Positions 11,552 through 30,701 of a stretch of 64,000 nucleotides of DNA are shown piece after piece; the first letter of the stretch is position 1; each line of letters begins with the position of its first letter. The DNA is from an uncultured Candidatus Berkelbacteria bacterium (lineage in GTDB: Bacteria > Patescibacteriota > UBA1384 > UBA12157), in NCBI GenBank assembly GCA_903877885.1, contig CAIRFN010000013.1:2754-66753 (forward strand), read 5' to 3'. The position numbers and the translations under genes were made by a program. The notes beneath the pieces are model-generated. The model was not told where the DNA came from, ran no database searches, and saw only the letters and a list, made by a program, of their open reading frames with translations.

Positions 11552-13543
11552 GATTTTAATTTTCTTTAGTTGATTAATTTCATCTCTAATTATCGCCGCC
11601 TGTTCGAACTGCAAGTTCTGGGCGGCATTTTTCATTTCTTTTTCTTTAGCTTTAATGATTTTCGGTAGGTCTGATAGATCCTTCACTTCGTTCAGGATGA
11701 CAGAAAGGTCGGTTTGCGCTGCTTTTTCTGTCAGTTCATGATCGATAATTGATTCGATATTTTTTTGAATTGTTTGTGGCGTAATATTGTGATCTTTATT
11801 ATATTGAGTTTGAATTTTGCGACGACGTTCAGTTTCATCAATCGCCCTTTTCATCGACCCGGTAATGTTGTCAGCATACAAAATCACTTTGCCGGAAACA
11901 TTTCGGGCCGCCCGACCGATAGTTTGAATTAGAGAAACATCAGACCGCAAAAAACCTTCTTTGTCCGCATCTAAAATGGCAACCAGTGTAACTTCCGGTA
12001 AATCCAAACCTTCGCGAAGGAGGTTTACGCCAACCAAACAATCGAACTCACCACGACGTAAATTTTCCAAAATTCCGACACGGTCAAGTGTTTGAATATC
12101 GGAATGTAAATATTCGGCTTTAACATCGGCTTCTTTTAAGTATTCCGATAATTGTTCAGCCATTTTTTTAGTAATAGTGGTAACCAAAATTCGTTCATGA
12201 TTTTTGGCCCGAACTTTAATTTCTTCGATCAAATCTTGAATTTGATTTTCCGCTGGCCGAATTTCTAATTCCGGATCAATCAAACCAGTTGGACGAATAA
12301 TTTGTTCAACAATATTGTTTTTGGATTTTTCATGTTCGTATTTACCGGGCGTGGCCGAGGTGAAAATGACTTGCGGAATACGGGTCTCAAATTCGTCAAA
12401 TTTAAGCGGTCGATTATCAAAGGCACTCGGAAGTCTAAATCCGTTTTCGACTAATGATTCTTTGCGCGCTCGGTCGCCTGCATACATACCACCGATTTGC
12501 GGCACAGTCACATGCGATTCATCAATCACCATCAAAAAATCTGGCTTACCATTCGTATCAACTGGAAAATATTCCAAAAGCGTATACGGCGCTTCGCCAG
12601 GAGCACGGTCAGTCATGTAGCGCGAATAGTTTTCTATTCCCGAACAATAACCGATTTCTTTCATCATTTCTAAATCAAAACGAGTGCGGCGTCTTAAACG
12701 CTCGGCTTCCAAAATTTTTCCATCTTTGGCAAATTCGGCCAAACGAATTTCTAAATCCTTTTCAATATTTTTAAGCGCGTCTTGCATTTTTGGATCTTCA
12801 ACCACAAAATGCTTGGATGCAAAAATGGTTGTTTCTTCCGGTGTGCCAATTTTTTTCATCGAAACAGCTTCAAATACAGCAATATTTTCCAAAATATCAT
12901 TGGTAAATTCCAATCGAAAAATAATATCTTGATCGACCGGCATAATTTCTATGGTCTGACCATGAACGCGAAACTTGCCGCGTTCGAGAATTTCACTGCG
13001 TGTAAAATACAAATCAATCAGTTGTTTAATAATCTCATTGCGATTATATTTTTGACCACGCTTTAAAAAAAGATAATTTGCGCGATAAGTTTTTGGATCG
13101 CCTAACCCGTAAATGCAAGAAACAGAACAGACAATAATCACGTCTTGGCGGGTCAAAAGTGCTTGAGTGGCGGCGTGGCGAAGTCGCTCAATTTCCTTGT
13201 TGATGTCGGCTTCCTTTTCAATATAGGTGTCGCTGGCTGCCATGTAAGCTTCTGGTTGATAATAATCATAGTAACTGACGAAATATTCAACCGCATTGTT
13301 TGGGAAAAAGGTGCGAAACTCGGAGCAAAGTTGGGCGGCCAAAGTTTTGTTGTGAGCAATTACCAAAGTTGGTTTTTGGATTTTTTCAATCACATTGGCA
13401 ATAGTGAAAGTTTTTCCCGATCCGGTCACGCCCAAAAGAGTCTGAAATTTTTCTCCAGACTTAATACCTTTGATCAACTTCTCAATTGCTTGAGGTTGGT
13501 CGCCAGCGGGCGCATATTTTGAATTGATTTTAAATTCCATATA
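11546..13543 (-). CDS. uvrB: excinuclease ABC subunit B
   Basis: GVTGSGKT Walker A, helicase motifs, C-terminal UVR domain; start set at MEFKINSKY (13543) with AAAGGA RBS, not the upstream in-frame ATG. Confidence 0.92.
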   Translation of the reverse strand, partial: YMEFKINSKYAPAGDQPQAIEKLIKGIKSGEKFQTLLGVTGSGKTFTIANVIEKIQKPTLVIAHNKTLAAQLCSEFRTFFPNNAVEYFVSYYDYYQPEAYMAASDTYIEKEADINKEIERLRHAATQALLTRQDVIIVCSVSCIYGLGDPKTYRANYLFLKRGQKYNRNEIIKQLIDLYFTRSEILERGKFRVHGQTIEIMPVDQDIIFRLEFTNDILENIAVFEAVSMKKIGTPEETTIFASKHFVVEDPKMQDALKNIEKDLEIRLAEFAKDGKILEAERLRRRTRFDLEMMKEIGYCSGIENYSRYMTDRAPGEAPYTLLEYFPVDTNGKPDFLMVIDESHVTVPQIGGMYAGDRARKESLVENGFRLPSAFDNRPLKFDEFETRIPQVIFTSATPGKYEHEKSKNNIVEQIIRPTGLIDPELEIRPAENQIQDLIEEIKVRAKNHERILVTTITKKMAEQLSEYLKEADVKAEYLHSDIQTLDRVGILENLRRGEFDCLVGVNLLREGLDLPEVTLVAILDADKEGFLRSDVSLIQTIGRAARNVSGKVILYADNITGSMKRAIDETERRRKIQTQYNKDHNITPQTIQKNIESIIDHELTEKAAQTDLSVILNEVKDLSDLPKIIKAKEKEMKNAAQNLQFEQAAIIRDEINQLKKIKIS
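11672..11702. repeat. MITE-family segment embedded in frame in uvrB (encodes SVILNEVKDLSD)
   Basis: tgatagatccttcacttcgttcaggatgacag shares 27 of 33 nt with the iscS-embedded copy at 51215-51243 and ends in the family TIR gatgaca. Confidence 0.55.
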
Positions 13544-13553
13544 TCCTTTGTTA

Positions 13554-13584
13554 TTCCGGTCAGGTTGGCAACCTAGAACCGGAA
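13554..13584. promoter_or_regulatory. nested palindrome upstream of uvrB (ttccggtc-AGGTTGgcCAACCT-ag-aaccggaa), candidate operator
   Basis: 7-bp outer and 6-bp inner perfect inverted repeats located 11-40 nt upstream of the uvrB start. Confidence 0.35.
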
Positions 13585-13631
13585 TCCAGTTCCCTGTTAT
13601 TCTATCACAAATCCCCAAATTTATCCACATG

Positions 13632-13700
13632 TTGACATCAAGAGAGAGAGAGTAAATTTAAGGTGGAAGGGATCACCTTTCTAAAATTAAATAAGAGGAG
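13632..13700 (+). promoter_or_regulatory. promoter/leader of paralog A: TTGACA, (AG)6 repeat, TAAATT, conserved leader hairpin AAGGTGgaagggatCACCTT, AGAGGAGG RBS
   Basis: About 85% identical to 29609-29688 except for (AG)n repeat number. Confidence 0.5.
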
Positions 13701-13707
13701 GCAAACC

Positions 13708-14472
13708 ATGTCAGACGAAACTTTACAACCGGAAGATGTAGAAAATTTTGTAGCACAAACTAATAATGCGCAAGCAATAGAAACAACAGAGAAAGTTAGA
13801 ACTAGAGAATCAGAGATTCAAACCAATATTGATTTCTGGAAAAACTTGGCATTAGAAGGTATAGAAGTTAATGAAAATGAAATTCGAGCCGCTATTGAAG
13901 TCCTACCAGAAGTCGAAGGGTTTGACTGGTATATCGCCATTCCTGAAGGTGTCAAAACGTCCGAGGTTTGGCAAAAAGTAATCACGCGTTATCCCAACGA
14001 TCCGTCTTTAAATGAATTAAATGGTCTAAAATTGCCACGCGAAACCAAAGAAACCTTTGCTGTGGCTGCCAGGTACAGCAAAAAACCAGACGCTGTCCGC
14101 GAAGAAGGACTAGTCAAATCAGCCAAGGATTGGGAGCGATCAATGTCGGTCTATGAGTCTCCAAATTGGGAAATAGCTGAACACACCTACATGTCTCCCT
14201 TGGAAAGAGTAGTGGCAGAACTGCGCTGGAACGCTGAAAACGGCACTCATTTAGATGAAGGAGATGAGATCACTTTTTGTCCCGGGTCCCGGACAACTGA
14301 CGGTCGTGTCCTTGGCATGCACTTTAACACCTTATATAACAATTGCACCTTCAATAGTTATGATCCTTCCACTAAAAAATGGAATTTAAGAGTCCGCCAG
14401 GTCGTAACTAAAGACACTAAAGTTGAATCAAATACTAATTTCTTTGAACAACGGCCATATCCTACAAAATAG
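13708..14472 (+). CDS. hypothetical protein, paralog A of duplicated family (start MSDETLQPE)
   Basis: N-terminal ~60 aa nearly identical to the 29689 ORF; conserved motifs FDW.IAIP.G, AARYS, C.GSRT.DG, TKDTK; no known domain recognised. Confidence 0.6.
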   Translation: MSDETLQPEDVENFVAQTNNAQAIETTEKVRTRESEIQTNIDFWKNLALEGIEVNENEIRAAIEVLPEVEGFDWYIAIPEGVKTSEVWQKVITRYPNDPSLNELNGLKLPRETKETFAVAARYSKKPDAVREEGLVKSAKDWERSMSVYESPNWEIAEHTYMSPLERVVAELRWNAENGTHLDEGDEITFCPGSRTTDGRVLGMHFNTLYNNCTFNSYDPSTKKWNLRVRQVVTKDTKVESNTNFFEQRPYPTK

Positions 14473-14538
14473 TCATGTAGCCCTGAACTTAACAAAAATG
14501 ACGCTATTACGTCTGAAACCCCGACTCAATAAATTTTA

Positions 14539-14580
14539 CCCGCAAAGCAATTCGAAAGAAACGCAATGCGGGTTTTTAAA
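14539..14580 (+). terminator. rho-independent terminator of paralog A
   Basis: cccgca...tgcggg hairpin + TTTTT; homologous terminator follows paralog B. Confidence 0.6.
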
Positions 14581-14657
14581 TTGAAATGATTTTATAGATT
14601 GCCACGCTTCCCGCCCGCCGGCGGATCGCTCGCAATGACAAAAAAATTATTTTTCTA

Positions 14658-14742
14658 ACCTGTCACAGCCCACTTCGGAAGTGGGCTATATGGTTAAAGT
14701 TTAGTCCGTTACCACCTGGGAGGTGGCAACATATGGTTAGAG
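14658..14742. repeat. REP doublet (agcccacttcggaagtgggct-atatggtta ; ccacctgggaggtgg-caacatatggtta)
   Basis: Two GC-rich hairpins each followed by ATATGGTTA; whole ~85-nt unit repeated at 30566-30651. Confidence 0.65.
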
Positions 14743-14744
14743 AA

Positions 14745-14779
14745 AAAATCTAATCAAAAAGGCTACCCAAGGGCAGCCC
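14745..14779 (-). terminator. terminator of small acidic-protein gene
   Basis: gggctgcccttgggtagcc hairpin followed by T-run on minus strand. Confidence 0.5.
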
Positions 14780-14804
14780 ATTTGATTTTTGTCTTCGATT
14801 TTAA

Positions 14805-14942
14805 CTATTCTGGCATGTCTTCTTCATCGGCTTCTTCTTCTGCGCCTTCGTCTTCTTCCGCGTCTTCTTCACCAGCAACTTCATCTTCTTCAGTTTCTTC
14901 TACTTCTTCTTCATCAACTTGTGGGGTCATATCATCTGTCAT
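14805..14942 (-). CDS. small highly acidic protein (45 aa, Glu/Asp-rich)
   Basis: ATG preceded by GGAGGT RBS at 5-nt spacing; MTDDMTPQVDEEEVEETEEDE...; followed by terminator; the plus-strand Ser-rich ORF 14782-14988 is its antisense artefact. Confidence 0.45.
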   Translation of the reverse strand: MTDDMTPQVDEEEVEETEEDEVAGEEDAEEDEGAEEEADEEDMPE

Positions 14943-15041
14943 GATACCTCCTGTTCGCCCTTTTCGTCAGACGAAAATCGGGCCTTAATCTTTATTTGAG
15001 CTTATTATCTCGAATTAGAATTAGCTTGTCAATAACCAATT

Positions 15042-16259
15042 TTACAGGTCAATTTCCGAAATTTTAACGATTTTTGTACCATCTACATCGGCGATTTCCA
15101 CGCCACCTTGCTCTAACGATTTTTTAGAAATAATGATGCGAGTTGGCGCGCCAACTAAGTCGGCTTCGGCAAACTTTTCACCAGCAGATGTGTCGCGATC
15201 GTCAAACAAAACGTCGAAACCTTTTTTAGTTAGATCGTCATAAATTTTTTCCGCTTCAGTATTTTCGCCTAAAGAAATTAGGTGTACATCAAACGGCGCC
15301 ACTTCTTTTGGCCAAACCATTTTATTTTTAGCCGAATCATAATAAACTTCGACAATTGTGGCCATCGATCGAGTCAGCCCAATACCATAACAGCCCATGA
15401 TAAAGATTTGCTCTTTACCATCCTTATCGGTAAATGTGGCATTCATCGGCGCCGACCATTTTGTTTTTAACGGAAAGATATTACCAACCTCCACTCCGCG
15501 GCTGACCAAAATTTTTCCGCCACAATCTGGACAATTATCACCTTCTTTAACTTCGGCAATTTCTTTATTGACTGCAAAATCACATTTATCACAATGATAA
15601 ATTGTGTCTTCGCCAACTTCGGTTAAAACTTGGAATTCATGCGAATACTTGGAAAAAATTCCTCCCGATGCCGCCACCAATTTGGCGTCCAGCCCTAAAC
15701 GCTTGAAAACATTGAAATAAGCTTGCTTAGATTTTTCATAAAAAACATTCAAATCTTCTTCCGAAGCATGAAAGCTATACATATCCTTCATGACAAATTC
15801 AATTCCTCGCAAAAGCCCAGATTTAGCCCTTGGCTCATTGCGAAATTTAGTTTGAATTTGATAAAGCGCCAACGGCAAATCTCGATATGATTTTATATGA
15901 TGTCTGACAATATCGATAATCTGCTCTTCATGTGTTGGCGCCAATAACATTTCTTTTTTACTACTATCGGTCAGTTTGAAAAATATATCAATTGCCGATT
16001 CCCACCGACCGGTTTCAACCCAAAGTTCTTTCGGTTGCAAGACATTCATTAATAATTCTTGACCGCCAAGCGCGTTCATTTCTTCTCGAACAATTTTTTC
16101 AATTTTTTTGTAAACCTTAAACCCAAGCGGCAATAAAGCATATGCTCCGGACATTTGTTTTTGCGCAAAACAAGCTCGGACAAAATAAGAAGCATTAATC
16201 GAGTCGGCGTCAGCCGGCGTTTCTTTCAGGGTTTTAAGAAATAATTTTGATTGAAGCAT
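15042..16259 (-). CDS. proS: prolyl-tRNA synthetase, compact form without INS editing domain
   Basis: Class II motifs; QIQTKFRNEPRAKSGLLRGIEFVMKDMYSFH matches ProRS motif 2 region; Cys4 segment HCDKCD...CPDCGG where the editing domain usually sits. Confidence 0.85.
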   Translation of the reverse strand: MLQSKLFLKTLKETPADADSINASYFVRACFAQKQMSGAYALLPLGFKVYKKIEKIVREEMNALGGQELLMNVLQPKELWVETGRWESAIDIFFKLTDSSKKEMLLAPTHEEQIIDIVRHHIKSYRDLPLALYQIQTKFRNEPRAKSGLLRGIEFVMKDMYSFHASEEDLNVFYEKSKQAYFNVFKRLGLDAKLVAASGGIFSKYSHEFQVLTEVGEDTIYHCDKCDFAVNKEIAEVKEGDNCPDCGGKILVSRGVEVGNIFPLKTKWSAPMNATFTDKDGKEQIFIMGCYGIGLTRSMATIVEVYYDSAKNKMVWPKEVAPFDVHLISLGENTEAEKIYDDLTKKGFDVLFDDRDTSAGEKFAEADLVGAPTRIIISKKSLEQGGVEIADVDGTKIVKISEIDL

Positions 16260-29502: not shown

Positions 29503-29608
29503 CTTTCCCCCTCCATCAATTCAAGGTACAGCCCATCGACTGATCGATAGACCAATTAGTTCAGACATTACCTGGATTATGTTCGATAGTCAAGGCCTTG
29601 ACAGAACC

Positions 29609-29688
29609 TTGATTTCGAGAGAGAGAGAGAGAGAGTAAATTTAAAGTGGAAGGGATCACCTTTCTAAAATTAAATAAGGAGGCAAATC
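29609..29688 (+). promoter_or_regulatory. promoter/leader of paralog B: TTGATT, (AG)9 repeat, TAAATT, conserved leader hairpin, AAGGAGG RBS
   Basis: Homologous to 13632-13700 but with 3 more AG units; an extra TTGACA lies at 29598. Confidence 0.5.
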
Positions 29689-30558: not shown

Positions 30559-30565
30559 AATCCCA

Positions 30566-30651
30566 AACCTGTCACGGCCCACTTCCAGGGTGGGATATAT
30601 GGTTAAAATTTACCAAGTTACCACCTTGGAGGTGGTAACATATGGTTAGAA
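30566..30651. repeat. REP doublet (cccacttccagggtggg-atatatggtta ; gttaccaccttggaggtggtaac-atatggtta)
   Basis: Homologous to 14658-14742; the second hairpin is identical to the one inside mnmA. Confidence 0.65.
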
Positions 30652-30701
30652 AACAAGCTAAACCCGCCTGCCGGTAGACAGGACTTGATCTACGGAAAAT
30701 T

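Follow-up and report, generated by a model that had tools for sequence, protein, structure and literature searches.

Contingency loci that depend on slippage are considered typical of bacteria adapted to a host, pathogens and commensals alike, among them Haemophilus, Neisseria, Campylobacter, Helicobacter and Mycoplasma. In the promoters of Neisseria porA, opc and fetA and of Mycoplasma hyorhinis vlp, a homopolymer lies in the spacer, whose length switches expression or sets its level; the vlp genes are a paralog family with a conserved 5′ region in common, the promoter and its repeat included. In a second arrangement, the repeats lie upstream of the −35 element, as (GAA)n in Mycoplasma gallisepticum vlhA and (TAAA)n in Neisseria nadA. 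Vmm, a surface lipoprotein, is associated with a (TA)n tract. The promoter of vmm in Mycoplasma mycoides subsp. mycoides SC carries a dinucleotide repeat (Persson et al. 2002, summarised in PMC2628566), and the fimbrial promoters of Haemophilus influenzae hifA/hifB carry (TA)9–11 between −35 and −10 (van Ham et al. 1993, summarised in PMC2651432). Repeats of the AG/CT type have been described within genes, namely (AG)12 in the type III mod gene of M. mycoides capri (PMC3498834) and CT repeats in Helicobacter pylori oipA (PMC10564699).

Here, we compare with these systems two (AG)n tracts in a 64,000-nt stretch of DNA (the window), a bacterial chromosome segment with 38.6% G+C that carries uvrA, uvrB, proS, rseP, frr, tsf, gatCA and ligA. 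Gene A (254 aa, P0002; 13708–14472, plus strand) and its paralog gene B (270 aa, P0001; 29689–30501, plus strand; 42% identity) belong to an orphan Patescibacteria family and are isolated plus-strand genes flanked by minus-strand housekeeping genes. Upstream of gene A, the perfect −35 consensus TTGACA (13632–13637) is separated by a 15-nt spacer, tca followed by (AG)6 (13638–13652, tract 13641–13652), from the −10 hexamer TAAATT (13653–13658), in which positions −11 and −7 are A and T. Upstream of gene B, the −35-like hexamer TTGATT (29609–29614; 4/6 consensus match) is followed by a 21-nt spacer, tcg plus (AG)9 (29615–29635, tract 29618–29635), and again by TAAATT (29636–29641); all these elements are on the plus strand. 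Reading both sequences bears out the initial annotation, which had placed (AG)6 and (AG)9 between a TTGA-type hexamer and TAAATT and had given spacers of 15 nt for A, at identical coordinates, and 21 nt for B. Anchored at the left edge of the tract, the upstream sequences of A and B share TTGAnnTCr over 9 nt.

The two tracts are far beyond chance. A search for (AG)6 with at most one mismatch returned two places in the window, the tracts of A and B, and none in 100 dinucleotide-preserving shuffles of the window. A repeat scan of the 64 kb found no dinucleotide repeats of at least five units other than these two; what remained were some homopolymers of 8 nt and two tetranucleotide repeats of three units each. 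Both tracts are non-coding and lie in divergent intergenic regions, between uvrB and gene A and between a 149-aa gene and gene B, with 55 nt (A) and 53 nt (B) from tract to ATG.

Set against the known systems, neither tract lies within a reading frame, as it would in intragenic phase variation by simple sequence repeats. The mod and oipA repeats have the AG/CT unit and mutability by slippage in common with A and B, and, according to the cited papers, act by frameshift within the ORF, whereas the tracts described here precede the start codon and are outside every ORF. Nor do the tracts lie upstream of the −35 element as in vlhA and nadA: the only conserved −35-like hexamer precedes the tract, which thus lies downstream of TTGACA and abuts the −10 hexamer. 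The vlhA repeat is nonetheless similar in being purine-rich (GAA) and in controlling transcription of a multigene family. The porA, opc, fetA and vlp tracts are mononucleotide repeats that change in 1-bp steps, in contrast to the dinucleotide tracts of A and B. What was found here is a pure, slippable tandem repeat, (AG)6 or (AG)9 in the window; by sequence, (AG)n lies between −35 and −10 in 6/6 loci with an upstream flank (including the related loci described below).

The closest counterparts are therefore hifA/hifB and vmm, as far as their summaries describe them. The hifA/hifB promoters resemble those of A and B in having a dinucleotide spacer repeat, 2-bp slippage steps and a divergent intergenic location; they differ in the unit (TA versus AG) and in that the tract at A or B serves one promoter only, with divergent neighbours that differ between the two loci. 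They also belong to a host-adapted pathogen, whereas A and B come from an environmental, probably Patescibacteria bacterium, encode no known surface structure, and have a switching behaviour predicted from sequence. The summarised vmm system shares with A and B a dinucleotide repeat in the promoter, a reduced genome, and a small lineage-specific protein without known function. The mechanism proposed here is best read as matching that of hifA/hifB and vmm, and as differing in the repeat unit, in organism and habitat, in a product that does not resemble a surface protein, and in the recurrence of a single module in several lineages and in front of several genes.

Related DNA extends the comparison to eight loci. 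A module in which TTGACA is followed by 3–6 nt, (AG)n, (T)TAAAT(T) and, after a further 6 nt or so, by a 5′ hairpin and a Shine–Dalgarno sequence was found upstream of six further genes in metagenomes from lake, groundwater and other sources. Two of these tracts have n = 6, one has n = 8 and one n = 10, and two are cut by a contig start at n ≥ 8 and n ≥ 9; the six genes comprise distant family members and at least one clearly unrelated gene. In Hainich groundwater (contigs L022, L025 and L026; GCA_964361715.1), the promoter reads TTGACA-aatcc-(AG)6-TTAAAT, with a 17-nt spacer. The promoter of L031 (SRR13554777) is TTGACA-aatcg-(AG)8-TTAAAT (21 nt) and that of L030 (SRR13554778) is TTGACA-tgc-(AG)6-TTAAAT (15 nt). 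In L024 (Ga0209429), TTGACA-att-AGA(AG)10AAG-ATAAAAAT gives a spacer of ~30 nt. The upstream flank is missing from two contigs, which start within (AG)8 followed by TAAATTT (L008, the contig of P0003) and within (AG)9 followed by TTAAAT (L028; SRR13727527). The initial annotation had taken the flanking hexamers to be promoter elements, and this is supported by their conservation: a perfect TTGACA stands 3–6 nt 5′ of the tract in 5/6 loci with a flank (TTGATT in the sixth, B), and TAAAT directly follows the tract in 7/8 loci (A, B, L008, L022, L028, L030 and L031). Upstream of the tract, the −35 hexamer is the only conserved sequence. The tracts are pure at all eight loci despite divergence of the leaders, with AG on the coding strand throughout, and every dinucleotide repeat of at least five units in the 153 kb of related DNA that we fetched is a module promoter tract. 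A search of viral contigs for (AG)6TAAATTT gave no match.

The genes behind the module are not always family members. Contig L028 (1–700) has a leader nearly identical to that of L030, yet an unrelated 207-aa gene follows it (hhalign probability 0.7%). The first gene behind the L031 promoter (800–1200) is a 92-aa ORF that has only a 13-residue N-terminal motif (with PEDFVAPETG) in common with the family, and the family member P0024 lies 26 nt downstream of it. Between the 207-aa gene of L028 and the family member P0036, a 3′ fragment of uvrA (700–1010) suggests insertion or rearrangement at a uvrA-adjacent site; gene A of the window likewise lies in a uvrA–uvrB neighbourhood. In other lineages, family genes adjoin HicA/HicB toxin–antitoxin pairs and four-helix-bundle genes of the bAvd/23S_rRNA_IVP type, a variable, island-like neighbourhood (L008 974–1523; L025 2212–2660 and 423–734; L017 3974–4339).

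The spacers of the tract-bearing promoters measure 15, 15, 17, 21, 21/23 and ~30 nt. Promoters that lack the tract are more uniform. The window's other intergenic and correctly oriented perfect TTGACA hexamers (5659, minus strand; 7686, plus strand; 15032, minus strand) all have a TAnnnT-type hexamer at 17 nt, indicating that the organism uses canonical sigma-70 geometry and that gene A, at 15 nt, is the exception. The tract-less homologs show the same spacing, with TTGACA-17-AATTAT in L029 and TTGACT-17-TAATTT in L018 and L019; the homologous sequence in L017 is TGATATAAT. The initial annotation had given 17 nt as the optimal spacer, and this agrees with the spacing in this genome's other promoters and in the tract-less homologs. 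Moreover, the distance from TTGACA to a shared GGATGGC hairpin is 27 nt in L030 versus 29 nt in the tract-less L029, which places L030 exactly one AG unit short of a working arrangement.

As a −10 element, TAAATT matches the consensus at 4/6 positions; TTAAAT is without the A at −11, and reading TAAATG instead loses the T at −7. In the TAAATG register, the spacer is 18 nt in L022 and 16 nt in L030, so that all n=6 alleles fall within the workable range of 15–18 nt and all longer alleles outside it. Two other candidate elements were rejected. The TTGACA at 29598 would be a perfect −35 for copy B and is 32 nt from TAAATT; TAAAAT at 13683 has no −35 as a −10 element, and its start would fall inside the Shine–Dalgarno sequence. 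CCTTGA occurs twice upstream of copy B, 11 nt apart (ccTTGACAgaaccTTGATTtcg; window 29596–29617), and its distal copy forms the perfect TTGACA. On the other strand, this distal copy overlaps CTGTCA, a −35 candidate of the divergent 149-aa gene.

Based on these data, we propose that (AG)n is probably a slippage-driven spacer switch or volume control of a sigma-70-type promoter, that is, a heritable, reversible and stochastic contingency locus. This supports the interpretation in the initial annotation, whose predictions, as far as sequence can address them, were borne out. One such promoter would drive each of the two paralogous genes and would consist of the −35 hexamer (TTGACA or TTGATT), a 3-nt prefix, (AG)n and the −10 hexamer TAAATT, with the transcript expected to start about 6 nt further on, at the 5′ hairpin. 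Replication slippage would add or remove AG units and thereby shift the distance between −35 and −10 by 2 bp per step. The canonical 17 bp would be reached at n=7 after a 3-nt prefix and, in L022, where the prefix has 5 nt, at n=6. Being one unit short, copy A (15 bp at n=6) is predicted to be weak or OFF, and copy B (n=9 or 10; 21 or 23 bp) to be OFF. Elsewhere, L022 would be ON, L030 weak or OFF, and L031 and L024 OFF. In either −10 register, a short tract would be active and a long one silent. Inferred here from promoter architecture are the start of transcription, the influence of tract length on expression, the reversibility of the switch and any selective benefit.

If this proposal is true, reduced-genome, uncultivated bacteria of lakes and groundwater also hedge their bets on particular genes, and the orphan family is singled out as a likely player in interactions with hosts, phages or neighbours. 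A switch known from pathogens would then apparently operate in free-living ultra-small bacteria. The full-text literature yielded no paper linking phase variation or contingency loci to Patescibacteria/CPR; the proposed switch, which would work by a mechanism already known, would be new for Patescibacteria in that no earlier report was found.

The initial annotation had suggested comparing repeat lengths between strains, and the comparison supports slippage for copy B and finds copy A invariant. With n read from assembly consensus sequences of few independent strains, copy B has (AG)9 in the window versus (AG)10, and hence a 23-nt spacer, in two assemblies, ERZ18625109 (L001) and ERZ27313079 (L010). 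The extra AG is the sole difference from the window in 4.85 kb of L001, a divergent contig end aside, and the sole difference in 2398 nt of L010. By contrast, copy A has (AG)6 in 5/5 assemblies, and the L022 lineage has (AG)6 in 3/3. The homologous promoters of L022 (n=6) and L031 (n=8) differ mainly by two AG units.

Assembly breaks provide further information on the long tracts. Contigs of five assemblies stop within tracts of n ≥ 8 (L002, L008, L011, L012 and L028), and all n=6 tracts were assembled through, in keeping with a slippage rate that usually rises with the number of repeat units. The first bases of L002 are exactly G(AG)9, which is where a graph would be expected to branch if n=9 and n=10 alleles were mixed. 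L011 and L012, Logan contigs from different runs, stop at the same base in the copy-B tract, c(GA)9 (29617–29634), one base short of the k=31 graph break expected for such a mixture. These breaks suggest length heterogeneity within samples.

The same observations bear on a simpler reading, in which the tract is a neutral hypermutable repeat in a promoter without adaptive switching, and long alleles either mark decaying, silenced genes or are tolerated by the promoter. Several features fit it: the short tracts are invariant, most spacers are off-optimum (all but the 17-nt one), the assemblies compared contain no allele of the predicted optimum (n=7 in the case of A, B and L030), and the ~30-nt spacer of L024 is many slippage steps from any working length. 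The sole observed polymorphism, 9 versus 10, joins two lengths that are both predicted to be OFF. However, a pure repeat is held at one promoter position in eight loci whose leaders have diverged and whose proteins are down to 31–47% identity. Neutral repeats should become interrupted or lost, and the rest of these genomes is free of such repeats. Furthermore, the ORFs downstream of the tracts are all intact, and the fold of the family is predicted with confidence (see below). We consider neutrality unlikely on balance.

The proteins give no immediate clue to what a switch would serve. Named relatives of A and B come from Patescibacteria MAGs only. A word-indexed search of 5.8 billion proteins returned only A, B and P0003; searched with a profile among 1.84 billion representatives, the family comprises 428 members at E ≤ 1e-3, 37 of them at E ≤ 1e-30. 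Members have 210–340 aa and the common motifs ERTRESEIKANVEFW, LPEVEGFDWY, SYAVAxRYxQEPDxDSLG and GVRRVITK; those driven by the module are 31–47% identical to B. Searches of Pfam, NCBIfam, PADLOC, PHROG and PDB sequences with the family gave no match. AlphaFold produced a poor model from three sequences (pLDDT 57) and a confident one from a 20-sequence alignment (pLDDT 82.7, pTM 0.80), for which Foldseek found no match in the PDB and BFVD. An acidic stretch of 30 residues at the N-terminus is predicted to be disordered and, in contrast to the Vmm lipoprotein, proteins of the A/B type have no recognisable signal peptide or lipobox. Given the absence of a signal peptide and of a known function, it is not evident why these proteins should be phase-variable.

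The nucleotide similarity of A and B starts exactly at the tract and extends over 203 nt (87.7%) through the leader into the coding sequence. Third-codon-position identity is 75–80% in the first ~40 codons and 20–50% beyond, and identical residues use the same codon in 29/35 cases within the first 50 codons versus 35/82 in the remainder. Tract, leader and N-terminal codons were thus homogenised recently between A and B, presumably by gene conversion. Because the likeness of their leaders stems from this recent event, the two copies do not count as separate witnesses to the tract. At the uvrB-adjacent locus in other samples (L014 1–200, minus strand, and P0152; compare window 13632–13735), TTGACA-tca-(AG)6-TAAATT is kept, and the leader and first eight codons (MSDETLQP) are as in gene A, followed by a different coding sequence. 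In L014 it reads on as ..TPEGAEEFVAMETGEAKEHSSYFENSRNFQE; the 37-aa ORF P0152 diverges a second time past residue 25, and both contigs end soon after the module. This divergence suggests that coding sequences have been swapped behind a conserved 5′ module. An extra AG in the Shine–Dalgarno region of L003, considered as a copy-B variant or conversion tract, was withdrawn given L014, a third leader type with 35 nt in common with B, a stretch long enough to produce a chimera in a k=31 graph.

Several of the proteins encoded behind the module have near their N-terminus the same short acidic motif, PE[DE]FVAxETG, which could be a targeting signal. A more far-reaching possibility, which we advance tentatively and consider rather doubtful, is that the (AG)n promoter, the leader and the acidic N-terminal segment (MSDETLQP.., ..PE[DE]FVAxETG) form a portable 5′ module common to different Patescibacteria lineages, behind which recombination swaps coding sequences (gene A, the L014/P0152 type, and the unrelated genes of L028 and L031), with each copy switched independently by AG slippage. 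If so, this would be a combined phase- and cassette-variation system, like the variable gene families of mycoplasmas, used by ultra-small episymbionts toward hosts or phages.

The same exact boundary, the same drop in third-position identity and the exchanged coding sequence next to uvrB could also mean that the tract mainly delimits, on the 5′ side, a unit of promoter, leader and first codons that recombines, so that gene conversion and cassette swaps among paralogs would be bounded by the tract or concentrated there, with length variation as a by-product. As a full explanation, this is very unlikely: it leaves the flanking −35 and −10 hexamers unexplained, and the tract also occurs in single-copy contexts of distant lineages. 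As a correlate, the boundary is real, and it is compatible with the promoter switch, rather than an alternative to it.

The 3′ flanks of A and B were considered as a cassette-specific site as well, and this was rejected, REP-like palindromes occurring elsewhere too; the similarity of these flanks is due to the terminator and to such generic palindromes. The palindromes consist of TAACC, a few nt, a GC-rich hairpin (for example GCCCACTTCGGAAGTGGGC), a few nt and GGTTA. Two tandem copies lie past the terminators of gene A (14650–14760) and gene B (30559–30660), a further intergenic copy is at ~41431, and similar ones are found in the Patescibacteria contigs L021 and L030.

Downstream of the promoter elements, a 5′-terminal mRNA hairpin is predicted in copy A (UGGAAGGG-AUCA-CCUUUCUA; 13664–13683, plus strand), beginning 6 nt past the −10, and in copy B with the same sequence (29647–29666, plus strand). 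Shine–Dalgarno sequences were read as AGAGGAGG for gene A (13694–13701, plus strand) and AAGGAGG for gene B (29676–29682, plus strand). The predicted hairpin begins 5–7 nt past the −10 in A, B, L008, L028, L029 and L030, and its stems vary by lineage (GGAAGG/CCUUUC versus GGAUGGC/GCCAUC); among the changes is an A-U pair replaced by U-A. Its onset coincides with the expected 5′ end of the transcript, which is consistent with the proposed −10; as individual z-scores are modest (−1 to −3.5), we take the hairpin as supporting evidence only. The whole window gave no match to any Rfam family at the gathering score, positions 13500–15100 gave only far-sub-threshold noise at E ≤ 1, and a search for tRNAs found none in the window. 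A sequence in the leader, GGATCACCT..TTCTAA, resembles what we take to be the 16S rRNA 3′ end; its reading as a mimic of the anti-Shine–Dalgarno sequence was dropped, the sequence not being kept in other leaders.

The leader also raises the question of whether the tract might be transcribed from a promoter further upstream, with (AG)n as a purine-rich 5′-UTR element that tunes mRNA structure, stability or translation, one possibility being competition with the arms of the leader hairpin (GGAAGG/CCUUUCU). These arms do resemble Shine–Dalgarno and anti-Shine–Dalgarno sequences, and an SSR-dependent 5′-UTR mechanism in H. influenzae (PMC12721329) provides a precedent. Nevertheless, upstream of the tract nothing is conserved but the TTGACA hexamer, and with this as −35 the −10 would fall inside GAGAGA if the spacer were 17 nt; homology begins at the tract, as do contigs; and TAAAT is immediately 3′ of it, at 7/8 loci. 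We regard such a transcribed element as highly improbable. Least probable of all is that (AG)n·(CT)n acts through occupancy or supercoiling rather than spacing, as structural or protein-binding DNA (triplex/H-DNA or the site of a GAGA-type protein), since, although the tract is a homopurine/homopyrimidine mirror repeat of strict orientation (8/8) and the long purine run of L024 would fit a length-tolerant element, 12 bp (n=6) is short for H-DNA, no candidate binding protein was identified, and the tract-less homologs, which keep the same promoter with a 17-nt spacer, indicate that the tract is not required.

Two observations concern the surroundings of gene A. Gene A and proS are 570 nt apart, and between them lies a 45-aa, extremely acidic ORF (MTDDMTPQVDEEEVEETEEDEVAGEEDAEEDEGAEEEADEEDMPE; 14810–14947, minus strand) with a good Shine–Dalgarno sequence and a canonical TTGACA-17-GATAAT promoter (15032–15004), which is called as a gene in another assembly. 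On the other side, 2 nt separate the start of the uvrB ORF of public assemblies (694 aa) from gene A's TTGACA; this ORF has an N-terminal extension (13541–13630, minus strand) relative to the conserved UvrB sequence, which starts MEFKINS.. (ATG at 13540). A minus-strand TGGATA-17-TAGAAT promoter (13627–13599) lies inside this extension and, together with the conserved start at 13540, indicates that the annotated uvrB start is probably too far upstream.
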